The notes: generated from the sequence alone by a model not told the origin. Counted from the first letter of the stretch, positions 23,505 to 58,764 are shown. The stretch is 64,000 nt of DNA from Candidatus Omnitrophota bacterium (GCA_023247445.1 JAHFGL010000004.1:1520-65519); one strand, 5' to 3'. Numbers and translations: made by a program.

Positions 23505-23616
23505 ATTTTTGAGGTTCCAATTTGGAACCTCAAAGGTTAGTATCTTGATGTGCCAATTTGGCACCTCAAGTTGAATTTTAAAATTGGAAGTCACAGCTTG
23601 TGACTTCCAATTTTAT
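23505..23616 (+). terminator. array of three consecutive hairpins (ttgaggttccaatttggaacctcaa; gtgccaatttggcac; aaattggaagtcacagcttgtgacttccaattt), the last followed by a T-rich tract
   Basis: Palindromes read directly. Shared CCAATTTGG/AATTGG cores. Located between the ORF6N gene and ychF. Confidence 0.5.
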
Positions 23617-28454: not shown

Positions 28455-28820
28455 ATGAATGTTGCTGTCGTTGGAGCATCAAACAAACCTGATCGATATT
28501 CCTATCAGGCCGTCATGTTGTTAAAAGAGAAGGGGCATCAGGTTTATCCCGTGCATCCGCGCATCAAAGACATCGAAGGAATGGCCGTCTATCCATCAGT
28601 TAATGACATTAAAGATTCGATTGATACTATTTCAATGTATGTTGCTGCTGATGTCTCAATAGCCATGGCGGATGATTTATTAGCCAAGCATCCTCGGCGA
28701 ATTATTTTTAATCCCGGGGCTGAGAATTTGCCGCTGGAAGAACAGTTACGTTTAAAGGGAATCCAACCGATTAATGCGTGTACGCTGGTCATGCTACGCA
28801 CCAATCAATTCGACAAATGA
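28455..28820 (+). CDS. CoA-binding domain protein (YccU-like)
   Basis: NVAVVGASNKPDRYSYQAV...VYPVHP matches the CoA_binding_2 pattern. Confidence 0.7.
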   Translation: MNVAVVGASNKPDRYSYQAVMLLKEKGHQVYPVHPRIKDIEGMAVYPSVNDIKDSIDTISMYVAADVSIAMADDLLAKHPRRIIFNPGAENLPLEEQLRLKGIQPINACTLVMLRTNQFDK

Positions 28821-29722
28821 ACGCGATTACAATTTCTAACTTAAAGAAAACTTACGCCAATGGCACCCAGGCCTTAAAGGAAATTAACCTGGAGGTCACC
28901 GCTGGAGATTTTTTTGCTCTTCTTGGCGCCAACGGTGCGGGCAAGACGACCGTGATTGGAATTTTGACGAGCATTGTTAATAAGACTTCCGGGTCGGTTA
29001 AGATTTTTGATATTGATATCGAAAAAGATCATATGGCGGCAAAGAAAATGATTGGTGTTGTGCCGCAAGAAATGAATTTTAATATGTTTGAACAGGTCCA
29101 GGATATTGTGGTGGCCCAAGCTGGATATTTTGGGATTGATCATAAAACTGCGATCAGAGATTCTGAAATTATTTTAAAGCAAGTTGAGCTTTGGGAAAAA
29201 CGAAAATCTCCTTCACGAACGCTTTCTGGTGGGATGAAACGGCGCCTGATGATCGCCCGCGCGTTAATTAATAAACCAAAATTGTTGATTCTTGATGAAC
29301 CAACCGCCGGTGTTGATGTTGAGCTACGTTACGGCATGTGGGAGTATTTGCGGCAGTTAAACGCTCAAGGCACCACGATTCTTTTAACGACCCATTATTT
29401 AGAAGAAGTCGAACAGATGTGTAAAAACGCGGCGATTATTAAGACGGGCGAGATTATCAAATACGATCGTGTGAAAAATTTGCTTCAGCTCCTTGAACAA
29501 GAAACCTATGTAGTTCACGTTGAGAAAATTCAGGCTATCGAAACGATCAAGATGTATAACCCCAAAGTAATTGATGATACAACCTTTGAGGTCGATATCA
29601 GTAAGAAAGAGAGACTAAACGATTTTATTCTCAAGATTTCAAACGCAGGAATGATTGTCACGGATATTCGACCTAAAGGGAATCGATTAGAGAAGTTGTT
29701 TTTAAAGATACTGAAACAATAA
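28817..29722 (+). CDS. ABC transporter ATP-binding protein (ABC-2 type exporter subunit)
   Basis: Walker A GANGAGKTT, signature LSGGMKRRL, Walker B LILDEPTAGVD. ATGA overlap with the previous gene. Confidence 0.85.
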   Translation: MNAITISNLKKTYANGTQALKEINLEVTAGDFFALLGANGAGKTTVIGILTSIVNKTSGSVKIFDIDIEKDHMAAKKMIGVVPQEMNFNMFEQVQDIVVAQAGYFGIDHKTAIRDSEIILKQVELWEKRKSPSRTLSGGMKRRLMIARALINKPKLLILDEPTAGVDVELRYGMWEYLRQLNAQGTTILLTTHYLEEVEQMCKNAAIIKTGEIIKYDRVKNLLQLLEQETYVVHVEKIQAIETIKMYNPKVIDDTTFEVDISKKERLNDFILKISNAGMIVTDIRPKGNRLEKLFLKILKQ

Positions 29723-29726
29723 AGCA

Positions 29727-29850
29727 CCAATACACAAATTCCAAATACCAAACAATATGCAAATTCAAAATCCCAATGGCCAAAATTAACTTTTAGTTTT
29801 GTAGTTTGTTAATTGCAATTTGTTTGGTATTTGTGATTTGGATATTTTAA
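29727..29850. repeat. palindromic intergenic repeat, copy 2 (same family as 24827..24985), between ABC ATPase and permease genes
   Basis: Direct sequence comparison of the two copies. Confidence 0.6.
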
Positions 29851-29855
29851 AAAAC

Positions 29856-30629
29856 ATGACCTCCCAAGAAAATTATGTAGCCTATCAAACGATCATCCGT
29901 AAAGAAGTGGTGCGCTTTATGCGTATTTGGACGCAGACGCTTTTGCCGCCGGTAATTACGCAGACATTATATTTTATTATCTTTGGAAAATTTATTGGAT
30001 CTCAAATTGGCGGGATAAATGGAATCAGTTACATGTCGTTTATCGTGCCGGGGCTTGTCATGATGGCGATTATTAACAATTCCTTTGCCAACGTAGTTAG
30101 CTCTTTTTTTGGAGCGAAGTTTCAGCGCAGCGTTGAAGAGCTTTTGGTTTCATCAACGCCACACTGGATTATTCTTGCTGGATATGTCAGTGGGGGAGTT
30201 TTGCGCGGAGTTGTCGTGGGGACGCTGGTCTTTATTGTTTCTTTCTTCTTTACCGTTCCGCATATTTATCACCCTTTTTTAATTATTGTATTTATGGTTT
30301 TGACATCGATTCTTTTTTCTTTGGGAGGGTTTATTAATGCGATCTTTGCGAAGAAATTTGATGACGTGGCGATTTTTCCAACGTTTATCTTAACTCCGTT
30401 AAGTTATTTGGGCGGCGTTTTTTATTCTATTCACAGCTTGCCGGAGGTTTGGCAGAATCTTTCAAAATTAAATCCGATCCTTTATATGATTAATGGTTTT
30501 CGTTACGGATTTTATGGAATTTCAGATGTGAATGTTTCCGTTAGTATTCTAATTTTGATTACGCTCATCATCATTTTAGCGGTTTATAGTTTGGATCTCT
30601 TAAAGAAGGGAACCGGGCTGCGAAGTTAA
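29856..30629 (+). CDS. ABC-2 type transporter permease
   Basis: Six TM segments. Internal start after the repeat. Partner of the upstream ATPase. Confidence 0.75.
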   Translation: MTSQENYVAYQTIIRKEVVRFMRIWTQTLLPPVITQTLYFIIFGKFIGSQIGGINGISYMSFIVPGLVMMAIINNSFANVVSSFFGAKFQRSVEELLVSSTPHWIILAGYVSGGVLRGVVVGTLVFIVSFFFTVPHIYHPFLIIVFMVLTSILFSLGGFINAIFAKKFDDVAIFPTFILTPLSYLGGVFYSIHSLPEVWQNLSKLNPILYMINGFRYGFYGISDVNVSVSILILITLIIILAVYSLDLLKKGTGLRS

Positions 30630-38455: not shown

Positions 38456-38486
38456 TAGGAAAAATATTAGATTTTGGGTTTAAAAT

Positions 38487-38520
38487 AAAGCAGATTACTT
38501 AAATGTAATCTGCTTTATTG
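38487..38520 (+). terminator. rho-independent-like hairpin aaagcagattac-ttaaat-gtaatctgcttt
   Basis: 10-12 bp perfect stem. Near-identical hairpin recurs after paralog 4 (41129..41168). Confidence 0.55.
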
Positions 38521-39875: not shown

Positions 39876-39910
39876 TAAATTTAAAAATTTAGTCTTTGAT
39901 AAGTAATAAA

Positions 39911-39948
39911 AATAGTGGATTTCAAAAGAATCCACTATTTTTATTATT
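39911..39948 (+). terminator. hairpin atagtggatt-tcaaaaga-atccactat followed by a T-rich tract
   Basis: Read directly. Immediately downstream of the paralog 3 stop. Confidence 0.5.
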
Positions 39949-39979
39949 TCCTAAATTATTATTAAATAATACTAAAAAA

Positions 39980-44187: not shown

Positions 44188-44562
44188 ATGAAAAGAGTTT
44201 ATAAAACATCAGTTCCCTTTTTGTTGGTTGCCTTCGTGGCGGCTTCTATATTATTGTGCTGCTACAAGCCAGCCTCGGCTGCGGTTAATGTCAAAGTTCC
44301 TGCCTGCCATAAAGCTCAAAAATCACAAACTCCTAGTCAAGATCATAAATGTTGTAAGAAGAACATGATGATGCAATCAGCTGTTCTTCATCAGGATTTC
44401 AAAGTATCCAATTTAAATCAACAAAGTTATGACTTCTTGGTGTTAGGATTAAGCTTAACGTCAACGTTAATCAAAGTTTCATCGCAATACCGACTCCCCA
44501 TATCTCCTCAGAAGTTTGCCTCGATCTCCATCTTCCTTAAAACACACACCCTTCGTATTTAA
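44188..44562 (+). CDS. hypothetical small secreted protein upstream of metal-efflux genes
   Basis: Signal peptide and Cys/His/Met-containing stretch VPACHKAQKSQTPSQDHKCCKKNMMMQ. May be spurious. Confidence 0.3.
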   Translation: MKRVYKTSVPFLLVAFVAASILLCCYKPASAAVNVKVPACHKAQKSQTPSQDHKCCKKNMMMQSAVLHQDFKVSNLNQQSYDFLVLGLSLTSTLIKVSSQYRLPISPQKFASISIFLKTHTLRI

Positions 44563-44634: not shown

Positions 44635-45909
44635 ATGAAGGGAAATAAGAATATAATTTTGGGCGTGGTCTTTTTAGTGGTTATTGTCATTGGATTTATA
44701 ATGACGAAAGAGTCGAGAGAACATAAGTTAACGCACACTGCTTCTGATGTTTATTATTGCCCCATGCATCCGCAAGTCATCAGTGATAAGCCAGGGAATT
44801 GTCCGATTTGCAGTATGAAGTTGGTTAAAAAGGAATTTTCTAAGAATTCATCTGTTCCAAAAGTTACACAGACCAAAGAGAAAAAAATTCTTTATTGGAC
44901 GGATCCGATGATTCCTGGATATAAAGCAGAAGGTCCGGGAAAGTCGCCGATGGGGATGGATTTGGTTCCTGTGTTCGAAGAGGGATCAAATAAAATAACA
45001 TCTGATAATTCTGTTCAAGGGTATTCAACGATTTCAATCGACACGCAAAAACAACAATTGATGGGCGTTCGAACCGTGCCCGTTGTGAAGAAAACATTAA
45101 CCAAAACGCTTCACGCGTATGGTTATGTGGCGCATGATTTAGAATTGTATCAGGCCCAACTTGAATACATTGAGGCCTGGCGTGTGTTTTATGCCTTTAT
45201 GTCCCGTCGACAAATTAAAGATGAATTTCGTAGTGATTGGAGACAATACTATGTTAATCAACCAGCGCATGGGCGCTGGCTTAGTAACGATAAACTTAAA
45301 GCGCAAGAAAGACTTATTAAGGCTGAGTATGAATTAAGGCATATGGGATTGACCGATACGCAGCTGGAACAGCTACGAAGAATCAAATATGGACAACCGT
45401 GGGTTCAATCCGATTTATTATTCTTTGAAAAAGATCAGCCATTCTGGATTTACGCGCAAGTTCTGGAAGTGGATTTAGGATTTATTGCCGCGGGACAAAA
45501 AGTCATCGCAACGATTCCAACGTATGGTGAAACAGTGGAAGGCATCGTGCGCAGTGTCTCGCCCGTTGTTGATCCCACGACACGCACTTCGCGCGTGCGC
45601 ATTGAACTACCAAATTACAAAGGTGAATTAAGTGTAAACATGTATGTTAACGTGGATATGCCTGTTGAATTAGATGAGGCGTTCGTGATTCCTCGTGAGG
45701 CCATTATGGATACAGGAATAAGCAAAATAGTTTTTGTACAAACCCAAGATGGCGTCTTTGAACCACGTAGTATTCAAACAGGTTTTGAAGGTGATGATAT
45801 GGTGGTTGTGAAATCTGGATTAAAAGAAGGCGAGACGATTGTATCCTCAGGCAATTTTCTTTTGGATTCAGAAAGTCGCTTAGAAGGATCACTATCAGGA
45901 GGGCAATAA
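44635..45909 (+). CDS. RND efflux periplasmic adaptor (CusB/CzcB-like) with N-terminal heavy-metal-binding motif
   Basis: N-terminal YYCPMHPQVISDKPGNCPICSMKL (HMBD-like). Membrane-fusion-protein beta-barrel and lipoyl regions. Confidence 0.75.
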   Translation: MKGNKNIILGVVFLVVIVIGFIMTKESREHKLTHTASDVYYCPMHPQVISDKPGNCPICSMKLVKKEFSKNSSVPKVTQTKEKKILYWTDPMIPGYKAEGPGKSPMGMDLVPVFEEGSNKITSDNSVQGYSTISIDTQKQQLMGVRTVPVVKKTLTKTLHAYGYVAHDLELYQAQLEYIEAWRVFYAFMSRRQIKDEFRSDWRQYYVNQPAHGRWLSNDKLKAQERLIKAEYELRHMGLTDTQLEQLRRIKYGQPWVQSDLLFFEKDQPFWIYAQVLEVDLGFIAAGQKVIATIPTYGETVEGIVRSVSPVVDPTTRTSRVRIELPNYKGELSVNMYVNVDMPVELDEAFVIPREAIMDTGISKIVFVQTQDGVFEPRSIQTGFEGDDMVVVKSGLKEGETIVSSGNFLLDSESRLEGSLSGGQ

Positions 45910-45910
45910 T

Positions 45911-48900
45911 ATGATTGAGAAAATTATTGATGCCTGTGCTCGTCAGAAGTTTTTGGTCTTACTTTTTGTAACGGCCGCTATTGTGGCTTCGATATGGTCA
46001 GTCAAAAATATTCCACTGGATGCTATCCCTGATCTTTCCGACACCCAAGTGATCATTTATTCCAAATGGGATCGCAGTCCAGATATTATTGAAGATCAAG
46101 TTACCTATCCAATCATATCGTCCTTATTGGGAACTCCTGGCGTCAAAGCAATCCGCGGATTTTCTGATTTTGGATTCTCTTATGTTTATGTCATTTTTAA
46201 AGATGGCACAGATCCTTATTGGGCGCGAAGTCGTGTCTTAGAATATTTAAGTAAAATTTCCTCTCAGTTGCCCGAGGGCGTTAAGACAGAATTAGGTCCT
46301 GATGCCACGGGGGTGGGTTGGGTTTTGCAATATGCACTTGTGGACACTAGCGGTACGCATGATTTGGCACAGCTGCGTAGTTTTCAAGATTGGCATTTGC
46401 GTTATTGGTTGGGGTCGGTGCCCGGTGTTGCTGAAGTAGCTTCCCAAGGCGGCTTTGTCAAACAATATCAAATCACCGTCGACCCAAGAAAATTGCTAGC
46501 CTACAATATTCCTATCAATAGAGTCATCGAGTCCGTGCGTTTGGGTAATCAAGAAACCAGCGGTCGACTCGTTGAATTTACCGGCGCGGAATATATGATT
46601 CGCGGTCACGGCTACGCCAAGTCTATTGATGATTTAGAGCAGATCGTTCTGGGGGTGGATGCTCATGGCACACCGATTGTTATTAAAGATGTTGCTCATG
46701 TTGCTTTAGGAGGTGAAACACGGCGTGGAATTTTGGATTTAAATGGCCAGGGTGATGTTGTTGGCGGAACCATTGTAATGCGTCAGGGAGAGAATGCGTT
46801 AAGAGTTATTGAGGCTGTTAAAACCAAACTTAAGGAGATTGAACCTTCATTGCCGCCAGGCGTCAAGATCGATATCACCTATGATCGTTCTGATCTTATC
46901 TTACGCGCTATTGATCATCTTAAAAAGCAACTGATAGAAGAAATGATCATTGTCAGTTTAGTTATTCTAATTTTCTTATGGCATTTCCCGTCAGCATTTA
47001 TTCCGATTGTCACCATTCCGATTGCGGTCTTGATCGCTTTTATTCCTTTGCTCGGAATGAAATTAACATCGAATATCATGTCGTTGGCAGGCATTGCCAT
47101 ATCAATCGGGATTTTAGTTGATGGGGCGATTGTGCAAATGGAAAATGTTTATAAACGCCTGGAAGAATGGGAGGCCGGTGGTAGGCGAGAAGATCCAAAA
47201 GAAGTGGCGCTTAAAGCGATTAAGGAAGTTGCGCCATCGGTATTTTTTGCGCTACTGGTCATCGCTGTATCATTTTTTCCAATCTTTACACTTCTTGATC
47301 AGGAAGGACGGTTGTTTAAACCACTAGCCTGGTCAAAAACATTTGCCATGGCGGTCGCAGCGATTTTAGTTGTGACGCTTAATCCAGCGCTGCGCCTGAT
47401 GTTTGTGCGCACTAAACCTTTTACCAAAGGTCCTGGCTGGTTGAGGAGTTTAGGGAATACATTATTTATTGGCCGCTATTATCCCGAGGAGAAACATCCC
47501 ATAAGCCGGGTGTTATTTCGTGTGTATGAACCTATCTGTCGGTTTGTCCTTAATCACGCCAAAATGACAATTATCATTGCTTTGTTATTAATGGCCAGTG
47601 TGATTCCAATTCTTTTACCTCACGGAAATTTTAAGTTTAAGGGGATTTCTTTGCCACATACATTAGGATCGGAATTTATGCCGCCGTTATGGGAAGGGCA
47701 AATTTTATATATGCCTATCACTATGCCGGGAATTTCAGTAACGGAAGCCCAAAAGTTATTACAAAATCAGGACAAGATTCTTAAAAGTTTTCCAGAAGTG
47801 GATAAGGTTTTTGGCAAAGCCGGACGGATGGAAAGCTCAACGGATCCTGCGCCATTATCAATGATGGAAACGGTCGTGTTGCTCAAGCCGGAAAGCGAGT
47901 GGCGCATCGTTAATGGCCGTCCAATTACCCATGAACAACTGATTGAAGAAATGGATCAAACGCTAAGAATTCCCGGAACCAGCAATTCTTGGACGATGCC
48001 GATTAAAAATCGTATTGACATGCTTTCAACGGGAATTCGCACACCCATTGGAATTAAAATTTTAGGTGCTGATTTTAAAGAAATTGATAGAATGGGCATG
48101 GCCTTAGAGGCGTTATTAAAAAATGTCCCCGGCACGCGCAGTGTTTTTGCTGAACGCACGCAGGGCGGATATTTTTTAGACTTTGATCTTAAACGCCAAG
48201 AGCTTGCACGTTACGGATTGTCCGTTGCCGATGCCGAAATGTCGATTCAATCGGCCATTGGTGGCGAAAATATTGCGACGACTGTTGAGGGTCGGGAAAG
48301 ATATAGCATCAATGTCCGTTATCCGCGTGAATTTCGCGATAATGTGGATCAATTAAGCCGTGTCCTTGTGGCAACACCATCGGGCGCGCAAATTGCTCTG
48401 GGACAAATCGCAAATATTGTTGTGCGCACGGGACCGGCGATGATCCGCAATGAAAATGGGATGCTTGCTGGTTATGTGTATGTTGATGTGGCCGGCCGTG
48501 ACATTGGAACCTATGTTGAAGAGGCAAAGAAGAAAGTCGCCACTGAGTTTAAACTGTCGCAAGGATACACGTTAATCTGGAGCGGACAGTATGAGAATAT
48601 GCTTCGTGTCCGTGAGCGACTTAAGATTGTTGTCCCACTGACACTTTTTATTATTGTTCTTTTACTTTATTTCAACACAAAATCATGGGTTAAAACTGGT
48701 ATTGTTTTATTAGCCGTGCCGTTTTCGTTAATCGGTGCATTTTGGTTATTATGGATACTCAAATACAATCTATCGATTGCAGTTTGGGTTGGGATGATTG
48801 CCTTGATGGGACTCGACGCGGAAACGGGTGTCTTGATGTTACTTTTTCTTGATATTGCTTATAAAGATGCCGTGCGTAAAAATGCCATGAAAACGATCGG

Positions 48901-49159
48901 TGATTTGCGCGAGGCCATCATTGTTGGAGCGGTTAGGCGCGTACGACCCAAAATGATGACGGTGGCAGCCGCTTTACTAGGCTTATTGCCGATTATGTTT
49001 TCGCATGGAGCCGGAGCCGATGTTATGAAACGGATCGCCGCGCCCATGGTGGGAGGTTTAACGACGTCGTTTATTTTGGAATTGCTTGTTTACCCGGCTG
49101 TCTATTTTCTTTGGAAATCGCATTTTGAATTAAAGAATAATAAACCTCAAATAACATAA
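45911..49159 (+). CDS. heavy-metal-efflux (HME) RND inner membrane pump, CusA/CzcA family
   Basis: 1082 aa, 12 TM helices. Two large periplasmic loops. Typical AcrB/CzcA N-terminus MIEKIIDACARQKFLVLL. Confidence 0.85.
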   Translation: MIEKIIDACARQKFLVLLFVTAAIVASIWSVKNIPLDAIPDLSDTQVIIYSKWDRSPDIIEDQVTYPIISSLLGTPGVKAIRGFSDFGFSYVYVIFKDGTDPYWARSRVLEYLSKISSQLPEGVKTELGPDATGVGWVLQYALVDTSGTHDLAQLRSFQDWHLRYWLGSVPGVAEVASQGGFVKQYQITVDPRKLLAYNIPINRVIESVRLGNQETSGRLVEFTGAEYMIRGHGYAKSIDDLEQIVLGVDAHGTPIVIKDVAHVALGGETRRGILDLNGQGDVVGGTIVMRQGENALRVIEAVKTKLKEIEPSLPPGVKIDITYDRSDLILRAIDHLKKQLIEEMIIVSLVILIFLWHFPSAFIPIVTIPIAVLIAFIPLLGMKLTSNIMSLAGIAISIGILVDGAIVQMENVYKRLEEWEAGGRREDPKEVALKAIKEVAPSVFFALLVIAVSFFPIFTLLDQEGRLFKPLAWSKTFAMAVAAILVVTLNPALRLMFVRTKPFTKGPGWLRSLGNTLFIGRYYPEEKHPISRVLFRVYEPICRFVLNHAKMTIIIALLLMASVIPILLPHGNFKFKGISLPHTLGSEFMPPLWEGQILYMPITMPGISVTEAQKLLQNQDKILKSFPEVDKVFGKAGRMESSTDPAPLSMMETVVLLKPESEWRIVNGRPITHEQLIEEMDQTLRIPGTSNSWTMPIKNRIDMLSTGIRTPIGIKILGADFKEIDRMGMALEALLKNVPGTRSVFAERTQGGYFLDFDLKRQELARYGLSVADAEMSIQSAIGGENIATTVEGRERYSINVRYPREFRDNVDQLSRVLVATPSGAQIALGQIANIVVRTGPAMIRNENGMLAGYVYVDVAGRDIGTYVEEAKKKVATEFKLSQGYTLIWSGQYENMLRVRERLKIVVPLTLFIIVLLLYFNTKSWVKTGIVLLAVPFSLIGAFWLLWILKYNLSIAVWVGMIALMGLDAETGVLMLLFLDIAYKDAVRKNAMKTIGDLREAIIVGAVRRVRPKMMTVAAALLGLLPIMFSHGAGADVMKRIAAPMVGGLTTSFILELLVYPAVYFLWKSHFELKNNKPQIT

Positions 49160-49179
49160 AGCAAAAAGGAGGAAGTACA

Positions 49180-49524
49180 ATGAAAACAAAATTATTTGTT
49201 TTAATCTTGATGGCCGTCTTTTTAAGGCTCGATGGGGCTATCGCGAGCAGTGAAGAAATTGCCGTCGCGGTCGTAGAAAAAGACAAGGCTGCTGTGGAAG
49301 TTGTCGATGTCGGTAATAAAATTTGTCCAATTTCCGGGGAGAAAGTCGGCGAAATGGGTGAGATTGTAAAGCATGAATATAATGGCAAGTCGTATAATTT
49401 ATGCTGTAGTATGTGTCTTAGAGATTTTAAGAATGATCCAGAAAAGTTTAGCAGAATAGCCGAAGATGAAGTTGCAAAAGAAGCGGTGGTAGACAATTCT
49501 GAAAAAGTTCAAGAACAAAAATAA
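49180..49524 (+). CDS. secreted YHS-like metal-binding domain protein
   Basis: Signal peptide. CPISGEKV...YNGKSYNLCCSMCLRDFKNDPEKF resembles a YHS/TRASH-type Cys motif. Confidence 0.55.
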   Translation: MKTKLFVLILMAVFLRLDGAIASSEEIAVAVVEKDKAAVEVVDVGNKICPISGEKVGEMGEIVKHEYNGKSYNLCCSMCLRDFKNDPEKFSRIAEDEVAKEAVVDNSEKVQEQK

Positions 49525-49538
49525 AATCAAATTACTTT

Positions 49539-49667
49539 AAATATTGAATTGTTTCTGGAGGGACGTCGGTCCAACGAGCCGCATGGATTCAGGCGAGGAA
49601 GGACCGCCGAGCGAAGCTTGCCTCGCAGGGGCAAGCGAGCGATCCCGGAAGAAACAATTCAATATTT
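49539..49667. repeat. GC-rich approx 95-bp island flanked by perfect 17-bp inverted repeat aaatattgaattgtttc / gaaacaattcaatattt (candidate structured RNA or MITE)
   Basis: Inverted repeat read directly. Inner segment is far more GC-rich than its AT-rich flanks and contains a hairpin gcttgcc/ggcaagc. Confidence 0.5.
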
Positions 49668-49699
49668 TTAGATTAATTTTAGAAACTGGAAAAAAGTTT

Positions 49700-50866
49700 A
49701 TGCAAGATCCCATCTGCGGGATGAGTGTTAGTGAAAAGAGTTCTCTACGATTAACCGTCAGCGGCCAAACCTATTATTTCTGCAGCGAACATTGTCTGAA
49801 GAAGTTTGCTAGCCAAAATAAAGTTGATGCTGATATGGTTTCCTCATGCGCGGGTTCTACGAGCCTTCCATGGTACAAAAATAAAACTTTACTGACCGCG
49901 GCCATTCTTCTTTTATTGTATGTATCATCGTATTTCCTTCCAATCTTGGGGCCTTTTAAGCAATCGCTAACGATGTATTTTCAAAAAGCCTGGTGGGCGA
50001 TTGCCTTAGGACTTATTCTCGGTGGGATCATTGATTATCTTGTTCCTCGCGAATACATTTCATATGTCTTGGCCCGCCGGAAGAAACGCACGATTGTCTA
50101 CTCGGTTATGTTGGGCTTTTTGATGAGCGTTTGTAATCACGGCATTCTAGCTATTTCGATGGAGCTTTATAAAAAGGGGGCTTCCACCTCAGCGGTCATT
50201 GCTTTTTTGCTCGCAAGTCCCTGGGCAAATTTGCCAATAACATTAATGCTCATCGGTTTTTTCGGATTCCTTAAAGCTATTTATATTATCGTAGTTGCCA
50301 TTATTATCGCTTTAGTCACAGGATATATTTATCAATTTCTCGAGAGGCGTCAGCTTGTTGAAACTAATTCACAAAGCCTGATGTTCGAGGAAGATTTTTC
50401 TATTATGAAAGATATTCAAAAAAGATGGAGTGATGTGGAATTTTCTTCAGATTATTTAAAAGAAACGGCACACGGCATTTATGGGGGAGTGGTTGCGTTG
50501 AGCAATATGGTTCTCTGGTGGATTTTAATTGGCATTGGTATTGCAAGTTTTGCCGGTGCATATATCCCGCCGCATTTTTTTCATCAATATATGGGACCAA
50601 CGGTTTTGGGACTTGTTGTGACACTTATTATGGCCACTATTTTGGAAGTCTGCTCGGAAGGCACCGCGCCCTTGGCCTTTGAAATATTTAGGCAAACCGG
50701 CGCCTTGGGAAATAGTTTGGTGTTTCTGATGGCCGGAGTCGCGACCGACTATACAGAAATTGGTCTTATTTGGCACAACATTGGCCGTCGGGCGGCACTA
50801 TGGTTGCCGGCAATTACTGTTCCTCAAATAATACTTTTTGGTATATTGGCTAATATTATTTTTTAA
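49700..50866 (+). CDS. YHS-domain-fused permease (PF03773-like predicted permease)
   Basis: N-terminal MQDPICGMSVSEKSSLRLTVSGQTYYFCSEHCLKKF is a canonical YHS. Then approx 8 TM helices. The upstream 156 nt of the long ORF is treated as noncoding. Confidence 0.6.
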   Translation: MQDPICGMSVSEKSSLRLTVSGQTYYFCSEHCLKKFASQNKVDADMVSSCAGSTSLPWYKNKTLLTAAILLLLYVSSYFLPILGPFKQSLTMYFQKAWWAIALGLILGGIIDYLVPREYISYVLARRKKRTIVYSVMLGFLMSVCNHGILAISMELYKKGASTSAVIAFLLASPWANLPITLMLIGFFGFLKAIYIIVVAIIIALVTGYIYQFLERRQLVETNSQSLMFEEDFSIMKDIQKRWSDVEFSSDYLKETAHGIYGGVVALSNMVLWWILIGIGIASFAGAYIPPHFFHQYMGPTVLGLVVTLIMATILEVCSEGTAPLAFEIFRQTGALGNSLVFLMAGVATDYTEIGLIWHNIGRRAALWLPAITVPQIILFGILANIIF

Positions 50867-52312: not shown

Positions 52313-54229
52313 ATGAGAATCCATTCTCAGCCTTTTTATAAGTCGATTGATATTTTAAATTCGGCTTTGATTCTTGTGTGCATAACTTATGCGCTTGGGA
52401 TCGTTTCTGACATTTCCTTCCTTCAGGATTTAGGAATCCTATCGTTGCTACTGCTTATTCCTTTGAAGGTATTTCTTTATTGTGGCATTTATGGAATATT
52501 AGTAGAAATAGCAAGTAAAGAGGAGGTATTGGTAAAGTTTGATCATTGGAAAGATTATGTTCGGCGATTTTGGAAAATTTACAGTATTTTGCTGGTTGTT
52601 CCTTTTTTTATTCATCTGCCATTAACCTTACTCGTCCCGTATTTTAAAAGCTTGCCTATCACTGTTGTGGTTTTTCAGTTTAATATTATTGCCTTATTTA
52701 TTTTAGCTAAGACAATCATTGCTAAGAAATATATCCAGCCTCTGGGCCTATCCGCACGGCCGATTGTCATTGATCTAAAAATAGCGGGAACGATTCTTGG
52801 GATCTACGCAATCGATATGGCCGTATTTTATTTGCCACAATTTATTGACGGCGGGCCACTTTATTTACCGAATATTTTAGGGTTTGTATCGGAATTAATC
52901 CATTACATGGAGTTTCTAATATTTGTCGTCGTTATTTTGGATGGGTATCCTGAAATTGAGAAACATCTTACTCCCGAGCGAGAATTATATATTATCAGCC
53001 CACCGAATGCCGGAGTTCGCGATAGTTTGGGATCCATTATTTATAAGCCGAATCCGGCGGTTTTTGTTGTTTTAAAGGCTTTGACTCCCAAAAATTATCG
53101 GATTCGACTATTTAATCGTGTGCCCTGGCAAAATAGGTTTTATAAAAGTAATGTTTTGGTCGCGATCACCTGCTTTACTGGGAATAGTTTTGAGGCTTAC
53201 AAAATTGCGAAAGAATTTAAAGAGAGCGGGGCAACCGTCATTATGGGCGGCCCGCATGTGACGTATTTACCGGATGAGGCTTTAGGATATTGCGATAGTG
53301 TTGTTATCGGAGAGGCGGAGGGGGTTTGGAAACAATTGATTACGGATTACGAAAATAATTCTTTGAAGAAGAAATATGTCGGTGCCGCCGAGGATAAATA
53401 CTATGAAGAGGTGCATCAAGAATTGCTTATGTCATCGCCAGAGGTGATCAGAGATTTTCTTGAGACGACACGTGGATGTAAATTTAAATGTCATTTTTGC
53501 ACTATTCCTGGATTAAGTAGCGGCCGAACACGGACAAAACCAACATTCCAGCTTGTTGAGTTGATTGAAAAGATTAAACATAAATATAATTCGGTATCTT
53601 TTATTGATAACAATATTTACAGTGATCCTGCTTACGCGAAAGAATTGTTTACTGCTTTAAAACCGCTTAAGGTTAAATGGCGAACGGCGTGTACCATTGA
53701 TATCGTTAAGAATGAAGAATTGCTCAAACTTGCCAAAGACAGCGGATGCGAGTTGCTTTTATTTGGTTACGAGATTTTTGGTAGTTCATCTGAAAAAGGT
53801 CAAGGAGGAAAATTCGCTTTAGCTGAAAAATATATTCAATTAACGGATGCCGTCAAGAAGATGGGGATCCGAGTTAAGGGGAGTTTCGTCTTTGGGTGGG
53901 ATACGGATCGGCTCCGAGACTTAATTACGTTATGGAAATTTTGTTTGAAGATCCGTCCTGAGATAACCGTCATCAATTTATTGACACCAATCCCTGGGTC
54001 CCATACGTATGACGATATGCTCAAAGAAAATTCTATTACAAATCTTAATTGGCGCAGTTACTCTTTCCATAATTTTGTTTTTAAACATAAGCATATTAAT
54101 CGACGTGTGTTGGATTTATTGTTTCCTATTCTTCGTCCATTTTTTATGTTTACGACTTCGCGTATGGGCTTTTCTGCGCTTTTCTTGTTAGTCGTGGTTA
54201 TAAGTTTGTCAGTTATGTTTAAACTCTAA
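52313..54229 (+). CDS. membrane-anchored B12-binding-domain radical SAM protein, paralog 1 (6 N-terminal TM helices + B12-binding-like + radical SAM CxxxCxxC + C-terminal TM)
   Basis: TTRGCKFKCHFCTIPGLS. B12-binding-like VAITCFTGNSFEAYKIAKEFKESGATVIMGGPHV. Hydrophobic N-terminal 220 aa. Confidence 0.75.
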   Translation: MRIHSQPFYKSIDILNSALILVCITYALGIVSDISFLQDLGILSLLLLIPLKVFLYCGIYGILVEIASKEEVLVKFDHWKDYVRRFWKIYSILLVVPFFIHLPLTLLVPYFKSLPITVVVFQFNIIALFILAKTIIAKKYIQPLGLSARPIVIDLKIAGTILGIYAIDMAVFYLPQFIDGGPLYLPNILGFVSELIHYMEFLIFVVVILDGYPEIEKHLTPERELYIISPPNAGVRDSLGSIIYKPNPAVFVVLKALTPKNYRIRLFNRVPWQNRFYKSNVLVAITCFTGNSFEAYKIAKEFKESGATVIMGGPHVTYLPDEALGYCDSVVIGEAEGVWKQLITDYENNSLKKKYVGAAEDKYYEEVHQELLMSSPEVIRDFLETTRGCKFKCHFCTIPGLSSGRTRTKPTFQLVELIEKIKHKYNSVSFIDNNIYSDPAYAKELFTALKPLKVKWRTACTIDIVKNEELLKLAKDSGCELLLFGYEIFGSSSEKGQGGKFALAEKYIQLTDAVKKMGIRVKGSFVFGWDTDRLRDLITLWKFCLKIRPEITVINLLTPIPGSHTYDDMLKENSITNLNWRSYSFHNFVFKHKHINRRVLDLLFPILRPFFMFTTSRMGFSALFLLVVVISLSVMFKL

Positions 54230-54283
54230 ACGTTAGGTTTAATCTCCGTTCGGCTTGAATCATTGAATTAAAGTAATGTCATT

Positions 54284-56206
54284 ATGATGTCTAAAGACAG
54301 CCCTTTAAAAACATCCTATGAAGTCTTGGCCTCGGTGCCGAGTCTTGTTCTTGTCACATACATGCTAGGATTGTTCTATGACACATCGTTTATCCAGGAT
54401 TTAGGATGGTCCGCCCTACTTCTTTTTATTTTCCTAAAAATAATTCTCTATAGCGGCATCTATGGTGTGTTGGTTGAGCTCGCCAGCGGACAGGAATTTC
54501 TAATTGACTTTAAGCAGTTTCGCCAGAACATCCGGGCCTTTTGGAAAATCTATTCCTTGTTATTGGTTGTCCCGTTTTTTATCCATTTTCCTCTAACGCT
54601 TTTATCAAACTATTTTAAAGCCTTGCCGGTCACCGTTGTTTTTACCCACTTTAATATCATCGCGCTATATATTTTAGCCAACTATATTATCGAGAAGAAA
54701 TACGTTAAACAACTGGGATTACCGAGAAGAAAAATTCCTCTGAGTATTTTTAATATTGTCGTGATTCTGGCTTTATACTTCATCGACTTAGGCGTTTTTT
54801 ATTTGCCGCAGTTTGTGATGACAGAAAAATATTACTTACCTAACTTTCTAGGGTTTCTTTCAGAGATCATTCATTATTTTCAGTTCTTGTATTTCTCGGT
54901 TTTAATCTTGAACTCCTATCCTGAAATTCAAAAGCATTTTACCCCGCAACGAGAACTCTTTTTGATCAATCCTTGGTGTGCGGGTATGTTGCGCAGTTTG
55001 GGATATGCCTTGTTTAGCCGCGGCTATCCACCGGCATTTGTTGTCCTTAAGGCCATGACACCAAAAAATTATAAAGTTCGCGAATTTAATCAAGTCATTT
55101 GGCGCAATCGCTATTACCGTGGGCATCCTTTGGTCGCCATTACATCTTATACAATGAGTAGCTTTGAAGCCTACAAGATTGCGAAGGGATATAAACAGCG
55201 AGGCGCAACTGTTGTTATGGGTGGGCCGCATGTGACATACTTACCTAAGGAGGCCTTGGAATATTGCGATAGTGTTGTTGTTGGAGAAGCCGAGGGAGTG
55301 TGGAAAGATGTCATTAAAGATTACGAAAATCATACCTTAAAGAAGGAATATACAGGCAGTGGCACCAAAGAATATCATGACCAAGTTTATCAAGAGCTTC
55401 TTAATTCTTCGCCCGATGTGATCAAAGACTTTTTAGAGACCACCCGGGGGTGTAAGTTTAAATGCCATTTTTGTACGATTCCTGGATTAAGCGGAGGCAA
55501 TGTGCGCAATAAACCAGTTTTTCAGCTGGTTGAATTGATTAGGAAAGTTAAGAAAAAATATAATCAAGTTACATTTATTGATAACAACATTTATAATGAT
55601 CCCGCGTATGCCAGGGAACTTTTCAAGGCGCTTAAACCTCTCAATATTAAGTGGCGTACGGCGTGTACCATTGATATTGCAAAGAATGAAGAGACCTTAA
55701 AGTTGGCAAAGGAAAGTGGCTGTGTAGGATTATTGGTTGGCTATGAGATCTCAGGAAATTCGCCTGATAGTCAGAATTTGCGCGGGAAGTTTTCGATGGC
55801 TGAACAATATCGGCGCTATACGCAAACGATCCAACAGCTTGGCATTGCCATTCGCGCTAATTTTATTTTTGGTTTTGAATCGGATCGGTTAAAAGATATT
55901 TGGCGGCTTTGGCGATACTGCTTATCGTTAGGAGCGAATTCAGCCGGGTTGGGTATTTTGACGCCGCTTCCGGGGTCACAGCTTTATCACGATATGCTTA
56001 TCGAGAATCGATTAACGAACCTCAACTGGTGTCGATATTCGATGTTTCAGTTGGTATTTAAACATAAATATTTAAACGATGCGGTTGTCTCAAAGGTTTT
56101 TCCTGTTGTTTCTGTTTTTTATTTATTAACTACGTCTAAGACAGGGCGGATTTTATTTTCACTCTTAATCATTTTGGCGTTATGCACAGTTTTATTTAAA
56201 CTTTAG
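54284..56206 (+). CDS. membrane-anchored B12-binding-domain radical SAM protein, paralog 2
   Basis: TTRGCKFKCHFCTIPGLSGG. Same conserved blocks as paralog 1: YPEIQKHFTPQRELFLINP, GPHVTYLPKEALEYCDSVVVGEAEGVW. Confidence 0.75.
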   Translation: MMSKDSPLKTSYEVLASVPSLVLVTYMLGLFYDTSFIQDLGWSALLLFIFLKIILYSGIYGVLVELASGQEFLIDFKQFRQNIRAFWKIYSLLLVVPFFIHFPLTLLSNYFKALPVTVVFTHFNIIALYILANYIIEKKYVKQLGLPRRKIPLSIFNIVVILALYFIDLGVFYLPQFVMTEKYYLPNFLGFLSEIIHYFQFLYFSVLILNSYPEIQKHFTPQRELFLINPWCAGMLRSLGYALFSRGYPPAFVVLKAMTPKNYKVREFNQVIWRNRYYRGHPLVAITSYTMSSFEAYKIAKGYKQRGATVVMGGPHVTYLPKEALEYCDSVVVGEAEGVWKDVIKDYENHTLKKEYTGSGTKEYHDQVYQELLNSSPDVIKDFLETTRGCKFKCHFCTIPGLSGGNVRNKPVFQLVELIRKVKKKYNQVTFIDNNIYNDPAYARELFKALKPLNIKWRTACTIDIAKNEETLKLAKESGCVGLLVGYEISGNSPDSQNLRGKFSMAEQYRRYTQTIQQLGIAIRANFIFGFESDRLKDIWRLWRYCLSLGANSAGLGILTPLPGSQLYHDMLIENRLTNLNWCRYSMFQLVFKHKYLNDAVVSKVFPVVSVFYLLTTSKTGRILFSLLIILALCTVLFKL

Positions 56207-56214
56207 GAACACTT

Positions 56215-58152
56215 ATGGATTTGAAGAAAGAAAAAGAAGAAATATCTTTATTAAGCAGGGCAGGGGGAATTCTTAATTCTCTGGCTTCGATGGTTTTTCT
56301 GACGTATATGTTGGATGTTCTTTTCGATAGCAATTTTGTTCAGAATCTGGGCATATTCGGTCTGTTGATTTTTATCCCGCTTAAGATTCTTCTTTTTACC
56401 GCCATGTTCGTTACCTTAATTGAGATAGCCAGTGGGGAAGAGATTCTTTTTCAATTTGCTCGCTTTAAAAGTAATGTGACTAAATTTTGGAAAATTTATG
56501 CCTTAGCGTTATGTTTGCCGCTAGCCATTTATTTTATTGTGAAGTATGTCTTTAGGTTGCCTCAAAACTTATCCATTAGTGTTTTAATGTTTCATTTAAA
56601 TATTGTTATTTTCTTTTTGGTTTCTTACGGCATTATTAATGCAAAATACATAAAGCCAGGGGCGCTAAAGAGAAGAAGCATCGTTTTAAGCTTGAAAAGT
56701 GTCGGTATTATTCTTGCCCTTTATGGATTGGATCTGGCCATTTTTTATTTACCACAGTATGTTGATACCTCAAGATTTTATCTGCCCAATCTGTTAGGAT
56801 TTCTTGCTCGATATTTAGATTTCTTTATCTTTACGTATTTATCTCTGATTATTTTTAAGCAATATCCTGAAATTGAGAAACGATTTACTTTTGATCGTGA
56901 ACTTTACTTAATCAATCCCTATCCTTATGGCGGAGATCTTCTGACGGGATTTTCCTATTCTGCGTGGCGGTGGCATCCACCTATTTTTGTTGTTTTAAGG
57001 GCATTAACGCCAAAGCATTATAAAGTCACAGAATTTAATCAACGTATTTGGGCCAATCGATATTATAAGAAAAATGCTTTAGTGGCGATTACCTGTTACA
57101 CCTCGAACTCTCCGGAGGCTTATAGGATTGCGAAAGAGTTTAAACGACGTGGTGCGACTGTCATCATGGGTGGGCCGCACATTATGTGTGTACCTCAGGA
57201 AGCCATCGATTATTGTGATAGTGTCGTTGTTGGAGATGTGGAAGGGGTCTGGCGTGAGATCATTCGCGATTATGAAAATGGATCACTTAAGAAAGAATAT
57301 TCTGGAGAATCAAAGAAAGAAGATCATGAATTTGTTCAGCAAGAACTGATGACCTCGACTCCAGAAGTGGTTAAAGACTTTTTGGAACCAACGCGAGGAT
57401 GTAAATTTAAGTGTCATTTTTGTGCGATTCCAGGCATTGTGGATAATATTAAAAGATTACCTGTTGAAGAATTCTTGTCGCTGATTAAACGGATTAAACA
57501 TAGATATAATCGTGATCTTTACTTTATTGATAGCAATATTTATTCGGATCCCGCGTATTCTAAAGAATTATTTCAAGCTTTGAAACCGATGAATGTTACC
57601 TGGCAGAGCGCGGCGACCATTGACATCGCCAAGAATCAGGAAACACTTAAATTAGCTCGAGAAAGTGGTTGTAAATTATTGTTATGCGGTTATGAAGTTC
57701 CTGCCGGATCGCTGGAAACAAAAGTTGATGGCAAATTAACGATGGCGGATCGATACATTGACTATACGCGAATTATCCAAAAAACAGGAATTAAAATAAA
57801 AGGGACGTTTATGTTTGGTTGGGAGTCAGATAGTTACAAAAGTTTATTTGAGCTATGGAAGTTTTGCTTTAAACTTAGCCCACAAATAACCGTTATGTCG
57901 ATTTTGACACCCATCCCTGGATCCAAACTTTATGTTGATATGCTTAAAAGCAATCGTTTAACGAATTTAAATTGGCGGGCGTATGCCTTTTATAGTTTGG
58001 TTTATAAACATCCCAATCTAGATAATTTTATATTTCCAAAATTATTTATCTTTATCCGATATGTGTTTTTCTTTACGACATCTACGTTCGGTCGAAAAGT
58101 TTTTATTTTTGTATTAATTGGGGTTGCGCTACTTCTTTTAACGAGGTTATAA
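56215..58152 (+). CDS. membrane-anchored B12-binding-domain radical SAM protein, paralog 3
   Basis: PTRGCKFKCHFCAIPGIV. Blocks YPEIEKRFTFDRELYLINP, GPHIMCVPQEAIDYCDSVVVGDVEGVW. Confidence 0.75.
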   Translation: MDLKKEKEEISLLSRAGGILNSLASMVFLTYMLDVLFDSNFVQNLGIFGLLIFIPLKILLFTAMFVTLIEIASGEEILFQFARFKSNVTKFWKIYALALCLPLAIYFIVKYVFRLPQNLSISVLMFHLNIVIFFLVSYGIINAKYIKPGALKRRSIVLSLKSVGIILALYGLDLAIFYLPQYVDTSRFYLPNLLGFLARYLDFFIFTYLSLIIFKQYPEIEKRFTFDRELYLINPYPYGGDLLTGFSYSAWRWHPPIFVVLRALTPKHYKVTEFNQRIWANRYYKKNALVAITCYTSNSPEAYRIAKEFKRRGATVIMGGPHIMCVPQEAIDYCDSVVVGDVEGVWREIIRDYENGSLKKEYSGESKKEDHEFVQQELMTSTPEVVKDFLEPTRGCKFKCHFCAIPGIVDNIKRLPVEEFLSLIKRIKHRYNRDLYFIDSNIYSDPAYSKELFQALKPMNVTWQSAATIDIAKNQETLKLARESGCKLLLCGYEVPAGSLETKVDGKLTMADRYIDYTRIIQKTGIKIKGTFMFGWESDSYKSLFELWKFCFKLSPQITVMSILTPIPGSKLYVDMLKSNRLTNLNWRAYAFYSLVYKHPNLDNFIFPKLFIFIRYVFFFTTSTFGRKVFIFVLIGVALLLLTRL

Positions 58153-58155
58153 AAA

Positions 58156-58764
58156 TTATTTAAGATTTTTGTAGATGAAGGGGATCTTGAGAATAATTTG
58201 AATAACAAAATAGCTGGCGATCGTGGTTGCAAAAATCTGCCATACTTTGAGGGGATAAATAAAGCAGGTAAAGATAAACACGCACATAATTGTTTTTCGC
58301 GAAATATTATCAAGATGATAAATGGTATCAACCAGTGATGGGATGTTGTACTTCTTGCTGTAAATTTCACAAAGTTGATAGAGAGTTTTCTGGCAGAGGT
58401 CTTCTAGTTGGAAGTCTTTTTTGAGTAGTTCCGTACTAATTTCAACAACCAACTTCTTTTGATTTTGATTCAGTTTAAATAGCGGATAAATAAATAGTAG
58501 CCCTGCCCATAAATAAACATACTGTTTTGATACGATAATCAATACGAGTAGTCCAACAATGAGGACATTAAGAAGCAATTGCAAACAGAGAATTTTTCTT
58601 AAACGGGGATAAAGAGTGGCGGCGTGATTAACATCTGTAAGATGTTCAGAAATGGCCGGACGCGTAACCAGGAAATTAAACCATCGAAAGACTTGTTCGT
58701 CAGTATCGATTGAGCTAGCAATAGCTTCCAAACTACTAACTGCTTTATGAAAAGGGATGGCCAT
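58156..58764 (-). CDS. hypothetical integral membrane protein
   Basis: 202 aa, 3-4 TM helices. Convergent with the radical SAM cluster. No recognisable domain. Confidence 0.4.
   Translation of the reverse strand: MAIPFHKAVSSLEAIASSIDTDEQVFRWFNFLVTRPAISEHLTDVNHAATLYPRLRKILCLQLLLNVLIVGLLVLIIVSKQYVYLWAGLLFIYPLFKLNQNQKKLVVEISTELLKKDFQLEDLCQKTLYQLCEIYSKKYNIPSLVDTIYHLDNISRKTIMCVFIFTCFIYPLKVWQIFATTIASYFVIQIILKIPFIYKNLK

Follow-up and report, generated by a model that had tools for sequence, protein, structure and literature searches.

A dispersed family of structured, RNA-like elements with one copy in a Cus-like efflux operon of Omnitrophota

Introduction

Bacterial MITEs are transcribed into long stem-loops that contain A-G and U-U mispairs and that regulate adjacent mRNAs (PMC2229807), and Correia RNA is bound by RNase III, is either cleaved or protected, and affects neighbouring genes (PMC2649163). 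With the Correia/NEMIS elements of Neisseria and the ERIC/IRU elements of enterobacteria, the family described here shares a length of 100-200 bp, an intergenic position that is often within operons, long stem-loops with A-G mispairs, inverted-repeat ends around a conserved core, occurrence in either orientation and a lineage-specific distribution. REP/REPIN sequences, which are mobilised by RAYT, likewise are dispersed extragenic palindromes that form long single-strand hairpins, with a strand-specific structure and a copy number that is very variable between lineages. Orphan non-coding RNA motifs and small ribozymes such as twister, hatchet, pistol and RAGATH also combine a compact multi-stem junction with conserved unpaired nucleotides and covarying helices; like the present family, they occur in several copies per genome in varied, sometimes mobile-element contexts, and have been detected as GC-rich islands in AT-rich spacers. 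The RNase III processing stems of the rRNA type offer a further parallel, namely a structured core within a long helix of fast-evolving complementary flanks.

The element was found in a stretch of 64,000 nucleotides from a Candidatus Omnitrophota bacterium (GCA_023247445.1 JAHFGL010000004.1:1520-65519), hereafter the window. The original prediction had described a GC-rich island enclosed by a perfect 17-bp inverted repeat inside a metal-efflux operon, and had proposed either a foreign-derived miniature insertion or a structured regulatory RNA, such as a metal-responsive leader or attenuator of the downstream permease gene. We are confident that the island is a conserved structured element that is not tied to metal sensing.

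Results

A GC-rich fold in the spacer between the YHS and permease genes

The operon around the element is of the Cus-like efflux type. Upstream of the element lie the genes for an HMBD-containing membrane-fusion protein (44635-45909), an AcrB/CusA-type RND pump (45911-49159) and a 114-aa YHS/TRASH-like protein (49180..49524, + strand; Pfam YHS, E = 2.5e-6), the last of which is also called as a gene in the ENA assembly. Downstream follows a permease with YHS and ArsP_1 domains (49700..50866, + strand; Pfam ArsP_1, E = 5.8e-35, and YHS, E = 8.1e-11), whose ATG at 49700 agrees with the ENA gene caller and whose closest named relatives are all from Omnitrophota. The YHS and permease genes are separated by a 175-nt spacer, and here, where the original prediction had placed it, the element has the same orientation as both genes; the YHS stop codon precedes its closing helix P1 by 14 nt and the permease ATG follows P1 by 33 nt. 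A longer ORF with a TTG start (49544..50866) runs through the element only because ORFs were listed mechanically, and is an artefact. ARAGORN reported neither a tRNA nor a tmRNA. An intrinsic (Rho-independent) terminator was rejected: a scan of 49100-49900 detected no terminator-like site, P1 is rich in A-U at its base, and the other copies described below lack a U-run. A second locus of the same strain from another sample (L001) is identical over the 221 aligned nt around the element and is uninformative.

Direct reading of the window shows a perfect inverted repeat of 18 bp rather than 17 bp, with arms at 49539-49556 and 49650-49667; the predicted 17-mer AAATATTGAATTGTTTC occupies 49539-49555, and 49651-49667 is its exact reverse complement. 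The repeat search lengthens the arms to 25 nt at 88% complementarity (49539-49563 and 49643-49667). By our own arithmetic, a perfect 18-bp inverted repeat spanning less than 300 nt is expected by chance about 3e-4 times per 64 kb of random sequence; the window holds five other inverted repeats of at least 14 nt within 300 nt. A search of the whole window with the 17-mer arm at <=3 mismatches, along the lines originally suggested, gave no further convincing copy. The predicted compositional contrast was borne out as well: the GC content of 49550-49649 is 0.65, against 0.30-0.44 in the adjacent 100-nt windows and 0.40 in the whole window, and no other GC peak in the 64 kb is as long or as high as that of the GC-rich core (65-70%).

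When folded as RNA, the + strand reaches -64.2 kcal/mol (z = -7.15 against shuffles). The predicted fold leads from the 18-bp helix through a GGA/GGA loop and a 4-bp helix into a three-way junction, and its base forms a near-continuous duplex of about 22 bp. On the + strand, the 5' arm of the closing helix (P1a, 49539..49556) reads AAAUAUUGAAUUGUUUCU and is perfectly complementary to 49650-49667; it is followed by the 5' side of the 3x3 purine internal loop (GGA, 49557..49559, opposite GGA at 49647-49649 in the fold) and by the 5' strand of P1b (GGGA, 49560..49563, paired with UCCC at 49643-49646). The P2 arm (49564..49609) has the stem CGUCGGUCC/GGACCGCCG, whose third pair is non-Watson-Crick (U·C) and conserved as such; beyond the stem come a C-G pair, tandem G·A/A·G and GCC/GGC, closing around a conserved GCAUGG loop. 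An optional hairpin, P2b, is missing here and is present, and covaries, in 10 of the 12 copies of the family. The P3 arm (49610..49642) runs AGCGAA, GCUUGCCUC, a GCA triloop, GGGGCAAGC and GAGCGA; it contains the predicted gcttgcc/ggcaagc hairpin, extended by a U·G and a C-G pair (49616-49636). The UCCC strand of P1b, the second GGA and the 3' arm of P1a complete the element (49643..49667, from reading, repeat search and fold). The copy is 129-133 nt long, and the two family covariance models place the whole element at 49538..49670 on the + strand, with 92.7 bits (R1) and 100.2 bits (R2). With filters off, R2 found this copy in the window at E = 1.7e-36, the runner-up scoring 10.5 bits, so that the window contains a single copy in 64 kb. 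A possible 4-bp direct repeat, TTTA, flanks it (49536-49539 and 49667-49670), a weak signal in AT-rich DNA.

Homologous copies in other Omnitrophota and in Bdellovibrionales-labelled genomes

The core of the window copy recurs elsewhere, as the search proposed in the original prediction now establishes. Exact occurrences of the core 24-mer GAAGCTTGCCTCGCAGGGGCAAGC were sought in one genome per species and turned up in four MAGs titled "uncultured Bdellovibrionales bacterium", a taxonomic label that comes from the record titles only; the proteins of these MAGs have no recorded names. The four loci share the blocks GAGCGGGCAYGG, AGAGUGAG and GAGAAGCUUGCCUCGCAGGGGCAAGC.AGCG with the window copy; their closing helix and left arm differ from it in sequence, with pairing kept. 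A 19-mer scan of metagenomes gave eight loci with flank homology, three of them duplicates of the Bdellovibrionales-labelled copies and five of them new (L012, L021, L023, L024, which is cut by a contig end, and L027), as well as eight chance matches in coding DNA. The covariance model R1, built on nine copies, then added far more diverged copies on the same contigs, giving three in 13 kb on L023 and two in 3-4 kb on L021. Altogether there are 12 distinct copies, from the window, other Omnitrophota contigs and the four Bdellovibrionales-labelled MAGs. Because the word searches fixed the sequence of P3, this small sample is biased, and for the same reason the copies found by the model matter: their P3 is wholly different in sequence (AAAUUUCC/GGAAAUUU and CUGCC/GGCAG), yet paired.

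Neither the plasmid collection, searched by blastn with a Bdellovibrionales-labelled copy and with the window core, nor the viral contigs, searched with a 17-mer and a two-block pattern, yielded a copy; the viral search gave only chance matches in coding DNA, among them one partial match with z = 0.1. The suggested Rfam scan was run and no family in Rfam 15 matched, either at the locus (E <= 10) or in the whole window (gathering threshold). Rfam 15 likewise gave no match overlapping any copy at eight related loci (L012, L027, L028 and L041 at E <= 10; L006-L009 at E <= 1), and the same scan did detect a TPP riboswitch upstream of thi4. A full-text literature search found no description of the element. 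The element family appears to be new and is absent from Rfam 15.

Copies adjoin unrelated genes and are patchily distributed

Every copy is intergenic. Copies occur in either orientation, and roughly half are antisense to their neighbours. In sense orientation, one copy ends 6 nt before the uvrB ATG (L028:9848-9994), another fills the 155-nt gatB-tsaD spacer (L027 and L043; L043, L044 and L045 are the same strain), a third lies upstream of an AAGGAG-ATG start (L024) and a fourth follows a PGM-family, glmM-like gene (L006). Antisense copies lie 5 nt after the nadC stop (L028:6106-6253), 62 nt after the uvrB stop (L028:12078-12225), 18 nt after the stop codon of a gene for a T4SS coupling protein (L007 and L009) and about 200 nt after the thi4 stop (L041:2454-2606, one of two copies at L041). 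Further neighbours are genes for ValRS and TrpRS, ankyrin genes and dnaE; no metal gene was seen beside any copy outside the window. Promoter-like sites were found near the shuffle expectation (3 against 1.9 and 1.8; 8 against 3.8 in a third region). One good promoter-like site precedes L028:9848. None of the copies examined has a transposase, RAYT or reverse-transcriptase gene beside it.

The presence of the element varies between close relatives. The organism of L023 and L028 belongs to Omnitrophota (its UvrB is 74-76% identical to that of named Omnitrophota), and the region of L028 with its three copies within 13 kb is syntenic with L030 and L032 (UvrB 74-76% identical), where the order leuA-valS-rluB-nadC ... 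uvrB-birA-coaX-groES is kept, the junctions measure 0-45 nt and the element is absent. It is also absent from 2 x 21 kb of two relatives whose Thi4 is 89% identical, and the model finds no copy at L002 and L005, two loci that carry the permease gene. In other Omnitrophota, homologues that share 62-63% identity with the permease stand in other gene contexts, with upstream spacers that are 5 nt long or unrelated, and lack the element. The family is a dispersed repeat with a patchy, lineage-specific presence in some Omnitrophota and Bdellovibrionales-labelled MAGs. The density of copies ranges from three in 13 kb and two in 3-4 kb in one organism, highly diverged, to one in 64 kb in the window.

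A conserved three-way junction with covarying helices

All copies have a common architecture, in which a long imperfect closing helix, P1, leads into a tight three-way junction with the arms P2 and P3. Measured from one model end to the other, the element is about 130 nt long; inclusion of the full outer helix brings it to 150-230 nt. About 30-35 nucleotides are conserved, mostly unpaired and purine-rich, in the blocks GA..GCGGGCAYGG, AGAGYGAG, AG.GAAG, CCUCG..GGGG and AGCG; within P2, the alignments show the conserved blocks as GAGC..GCAYGG and AG.GYGAG. Among the 12 copies, standard pairs make up 91.1% of the pair cells, a share that drops to 31-41.5% once the 3' partners have been shifted by 1-3 columns, and 26 of the 32 pairs have changed on both sides; none of 500 shuffles reached any of five structure measures. 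All five pairs of P1b (helix 1) have changed on both sides, with 93% of cells paired, and all 11 pairs of P2 (helix 2) covary, with 91.6% paired. The stem of P3 (helices 6-7) covaries completely in the copies found by the model, whereas its apical U·G and C-G pairs are invariant in 12 of 12 copies (RNAalifold). An independent RNAalifold run on the same alignment returned the same three-way junction with an outer helix longer by 10 pairs. Folded singly with 40-nt flanks, nearly all copies also show this architecture, with an interrupted P1 of 25-40 bp; the exception, L021:87-244, refolds differently with these flanks.

Non-canonical features recur as well. At the position of the P1 purine loop, other copies have NGA/GAN-type loops (tandem G·A), for example UGA/GAA, GAA/UGA or UGA/GAG; tandem G·A loops also lie in the arms and, in several copies, every 10 bp or so along P1. 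The third pair of P2 is non-Watson-Crick across the copies (U·C, C·A or U·U). All 12 copies fold better on one strand, by 3.6-22 kcal/mol (the + strand in the window), and the purine content of that strand is 56-61% in each of them. Since the counts of G·U (9 of 371 cells) and A·C (5) are both low and uninformative for the choice of strand, the strand asymmetry rests on folding energy and purine bias. So small a number of G·U pairs is low for a typical functional RNA. A by-eye search for a pseudoknot between GGGCAYGG and a strand or loop of P3 gave a pairing that is not conserved in the window copy, and coding for a peptide was rejected, as the frame of the conserved block differs between copies. 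The 30-35 or so conserved unpaired nucleotides exceed the needs of a simple RNase III hairpin or stabiliser, and suggest that the element binds a specific protein, adopts a tertiary fold or is catalytic.

The inverted repeat is the locus-specific part of the closing helix

Comparison of the copies shows what the perfect repeat of the window is. In the Bdellovibrionales-labelled copies, a core of about 120 nt, from AGAATC to GGTTGCT, is 97-100% identical, and identity collapses outside it; the flanks of L006, L007/L009 and L008 are mutually unrelated, yet complementary at each locus. An outer helix exists in 12 of 12 copies, with a sequence that differs from locus to locus. Because the arms are unrelated between loci and still self-complementary, the supposed terminal inverted repeat represents the outer portion of the closing helix, which is specific to each locus. 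Its arms are not ends recognised by a transposase, and a pure MITE with perfect terminal inverted repeats is rejected, since the arms are unconserved even where the core is 97-100% identical. A perfect inverted repeat of this appearance can thus be the locus-specific closing helix of a conserved fold instead of a transposon end. As to the choice between a foreign miniature insertion and a structured RNA, the structure has stood and the GC-rich core, which recurs in other genomes, does not look like native spacer DNA, but the repeats are no insertion ends.

One pair of copies behaves differently. L021:523 and L023:3333, from different loci of the same sample, share the outer helix too, which shows that the unit is at times duplicated as a whole. 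Neither of these two copies is bordered by matching direct repeats, and no consistent target-site duplication was found at other copies.

Discussion

We consider it probable that the element acts as RNA on the + strand. The window copy would be transcribed within the efflux-operon mRNA, and the transcript would fold into a very stable, long-stemmed three-way junction. Its effect on the operon would be generic and not metal-specific: the fold may serve as a processing site for a double-strand-specific, RNase III-type enzyme, or as a barrier through which the permease message becomes independent, in stability or translation, of the pump and YHS message; Correia/NEMIS and ERIC repeats behave in this manner. 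The family persists as a dispersed repeat. A specific role of this kind in processing or stability in the present operon can be put forward only tentatively. Taken jointly, with this functional step included, the account of a dispersed, structured, RNA-like family that would act generically on the operon transcript falls a little short of evenly balanced in our judgement. A role in cis on the mRNA, on the conserved strand, fails for the antisense copies, since these are antisense to both neighbours, unless they have promoters of their own; promoter-like matches at the copies are weak and not enriched.

The metal-responsive riboswitch, leader or attenuator of the permease that had been predicted is hardly credible. 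The stable structure and the sense position 33 nt upstream of the permease start in a metal-efflux operon would suit it, but other copies adjoin unrelated and housekeeping genes (uvrB, nadC, tsaD, thi4, a T4SS gene, dnaE), half of them in antisense, the 62-63% identical permease homologues elsewhere do without the element, the NiCo, yybP-ykoY and all other riboswitch models of Rfam 15 are unmatched, no terminator-like site was found, and the perfect 18-bp closing helix with its further pairs is too stable for switching. The regulatory metal reading fails because the same element occurs at many unrelated loci, a finding that the original prediction had itself named as counting against it. A rather unlikely but more serious alternative is a purely selfish, non-autonomous mobile element (MITE-, REPIN- or SINE-like) without host function, whose core would be a structure recognised, as single-stranded DNA or RNA, by a trans-acting enzyme during copying, and whose copy in the window would be a neutral passenger of the spacer. 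Such an element would be expected to be dispersed, confined to intergenic sites, in either orientation, gained at sites that are compact in relatives and present several times per contig in one genome, all of which we observe; the pair of copies at different loci with a shared outer helix, the tendency of contigs to end near copies, the possible TTTA repeat at the window copy and the locus beside conjugation genes also fit. The variable terminal arms, the lack of a consistent target-site duplication at other copies, the absence of transposase, RAYT and reverse-transcriptase genes beside the copies examined and the lack of matches in the plasmid and viral collections speak against it. So do the highly diverged copies in one genome, each of which keeps near-perfect pairing and the same unpaired bases, which argues for selection on each copy rather than decay.

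A gene family for a small, stable, trans-acting RNA that is part of an RNP is in our view unlikely. On this view the core of about 95-120 nt would be retained as the mature RNA; RNase III would cut the long closing helix, a processing stem that evolves fast and has its counterpart around rRNAs; and the operon would merely host the window copy, as operons sometimes host tRNA genes. A core that is 97-100% identical among four species, between flanks that are unrelated yet self-complementary, is the pattern of a mature RNA with its processing stem, and the conserved unpaired purines, the invariant U·G pair and the strand asymmetry agree with it. Antisense copies lie tail-to-tail with the upstream gene and face the promoter region of the next, which is compatible with divergent promoters of their own, and TTGGGA-17-TATAAT stands directly upstream of one copy. 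However, copy number ranges from 0 in about 100 kb of relatives to three in 13 kb, unlike that of housekeeping RNA genes, promoter and terminator signals are not consistent, and the paralogues of a single genome, different in every helix, lack a variable 'specificity' loop, which would leave many of them redundant. A new class of self-cleaving ribozyme that would cut the transcript between the YHS and permease cistrons appears improbable. It could account for a compact junction of several helices that are free to vary while about 30-35 unpaired nucleotides stay invariant, and for several copies per genome in varied gene contexts, one of them conjugative; the junction is tight, with no obvious active-site loop to be assigned, and the hammerhead, twister, twister-sister, pistol, hatchet, HDV-like and hairpin models match neither the window nor L012, L027, L028 and L041 (E <= 10) nor L006-L009 (E <= 1).

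Taken more broadly, the family might be a new class of functional RNA, a proposal that we also regard as unlikely; it could cleave itself as a ribozyme, or serve an RNP or an RNA-guided mobile system as RNA subunit or scaffold. The purine-rich three-way junction would then be the active part, the closing helix would be built from the sequence of each locus, and the family would have spread between Omnitrophota and the Bdellovibrionales-labelled bacteria. Families of such a profile have earlier proved to be ribozymes, RNP scaffolds or domesticated mobile elements. Apart from this proposal, the Cus-like operon loses an attractive but mistaken annotation as the site of a metal riboswitch, and gains a testable object in its place: a motif of about 130 nt that Rfam 15 lacks, in which some 30-35 bases are conserved and covariation is unusually strong. 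The alignment and the covariance model suffice to begin a genome-wide census and bench tests.

Comparison with described systems

Against the criteria used for MITEs such as Correia, ERIC and RUP, the copies have the size, the non-coding character and the intergenic position, and lack sequence-conserved terminal inverted repeats. In Correia and ERIC elements the terminal repeats are conserved in sequence and TA target duplications are the rule; in the present family the terminal helix changes from locus to locus and no consistent duplication is seen. Their copies are near-identical within a genome, whereas the present copies share their unpaired bases and their fold and carry compensatory changes in every helix; theirs is a simple hairpin, and here the core is a three-way junction. 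Unlike them, the present family spans two phylum-level labels. REP units are about 20-40 nt long, with a conserved stem and a conserved 5' tetranucleotide, whereas the present elements are larger, their stems vary and their loops are conserved; also unlike REP/REPIN sequences, no copy examined has a RAYT gene nearby. Twister, hatchet, pistol and RAGATH differ from the present family in its lack of an Rfam 15 match, its very long closing helix and the antisense orientation of about half of its copies. The rRNA processing stems differ in that copy number and distribution are erratic here, and the release of a mature RNA is only hypothetical. By analogy, the lifestyle of the family resembles that of Correia/NEMIS and ERIC elements, and its evolutionary signature resembles that of small ribozymes or RNP RNAs.

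Several other classes were considered and set aside. Folded integron attC sites end in the R''/R' boxes RYYYAAC ... GTTRRRY, and the arms of the window copy and of the other copies lack such a pair. A retron msr-msd RNA was rejected, as the downstream gene encodes the YHS-ArsP permease and no reverse transcriptase lies beside the other copies examined. Group II intron domain 5, SRP RNA, 5S rRNA, Y RNA/YrlA and the K-turn failed the comparison with the family consensus.

A minor observation concerns the assemblies. Contigs tend to break at or near copies, although the evidence is anecdotal: L024 ends inside a copy, one of the two L021 copies lies 86 nt from the contig end, and the L046 contig stops about 20 nt short of the position that a copy occupies in its 91%-identical relative. 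Anecdotal as they are, such contig ends would fit a repeat that breaks assembly.

Genomic setting of the copies

In two Bdellovibrionales-labelled metagenome-assembled genomes, the gene next to the element encodes a TrwB/TraG-like coupling protein of type IV secretion (L007 6349-7944 and L009 4802-6025), and this adjacency suggests that at least one copy is carried by a conjugative element. Several contigs break inside a copy, or approximately 20-90 nt from a copy or a copy-orthologous position, as seen at the contig end of L024, at L021 87-244, and at position 1 of L046. An element with enough copies to interrupt short-read assemblies would be expected to leave such breaks. On contig L043, whose copy fills the gatB-tsaD spacer, a gene for a 14,531-aa product (L043 1-3303) lies about 6.5 kb upstream of that copy. 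Giant proteins have been reported for Omnitrophota, and this product fits that description.

As a positive control for the Rfam scans in genomes bearing copies, we used the TPP riboswitch 5' of thi4 on contig L041 (1281-1403), which scored 49.1 bits, slightly below the gathering score of 54.3.

Relation of the element to neighboring genes

Within the copies at L023 3330-3484, from an Omnitrophota organism, and at L021 520-677, both strands of an internal loop in the outer helix bear a stretch that includes ACGG(C) (UUACGGCGA/GCGACGGAG and GACGG/ACGGC). The GGAG of this loop in L023 sits 11 nt 5' of the uvrB AUG and may be the Shine-Dalgarno sequence of uvrB. At the efflux operon in the window, a mechanically listed 440-aa ORF with a TTG start (49544-50866) runs through the element; we rejected this start and place the beginning of the permease at ATG 49700, the same call as in the ENA assembly.

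Other features of the window

A second long intercistronic inverted repeat, which is AT-rich, lies at 29729-29846 between the ORF 28778..29722 and an ATG near 29857, with 34-nt arms of 82% complementarity separated by 50 nt. We excluded it from the element family because the covariance model finds no match at that site. Three short near-perfect hairpins at 23579-23615, 38484-38519, and 39901-39949, with stems of 15-21 bp and loops of 3-7 nt, look like ordinary terminator-type palindromes.

Immediately 5' of the HMBD membrane-fusion gene is a Cys/Met/His-rich ORF of 124 aa (44188-44562), for which comparison with Pfam gave no match; its product could be a small metal-binding protein that partners with the pump in the periplasm. 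Directly 3' of the efflux operon, three paralogous genes lie in tandem (approximately 52313-58500); each product, about 640 aa long, combines B12-binding and radical-SAM domains with an extended membrane region at its N terminus.
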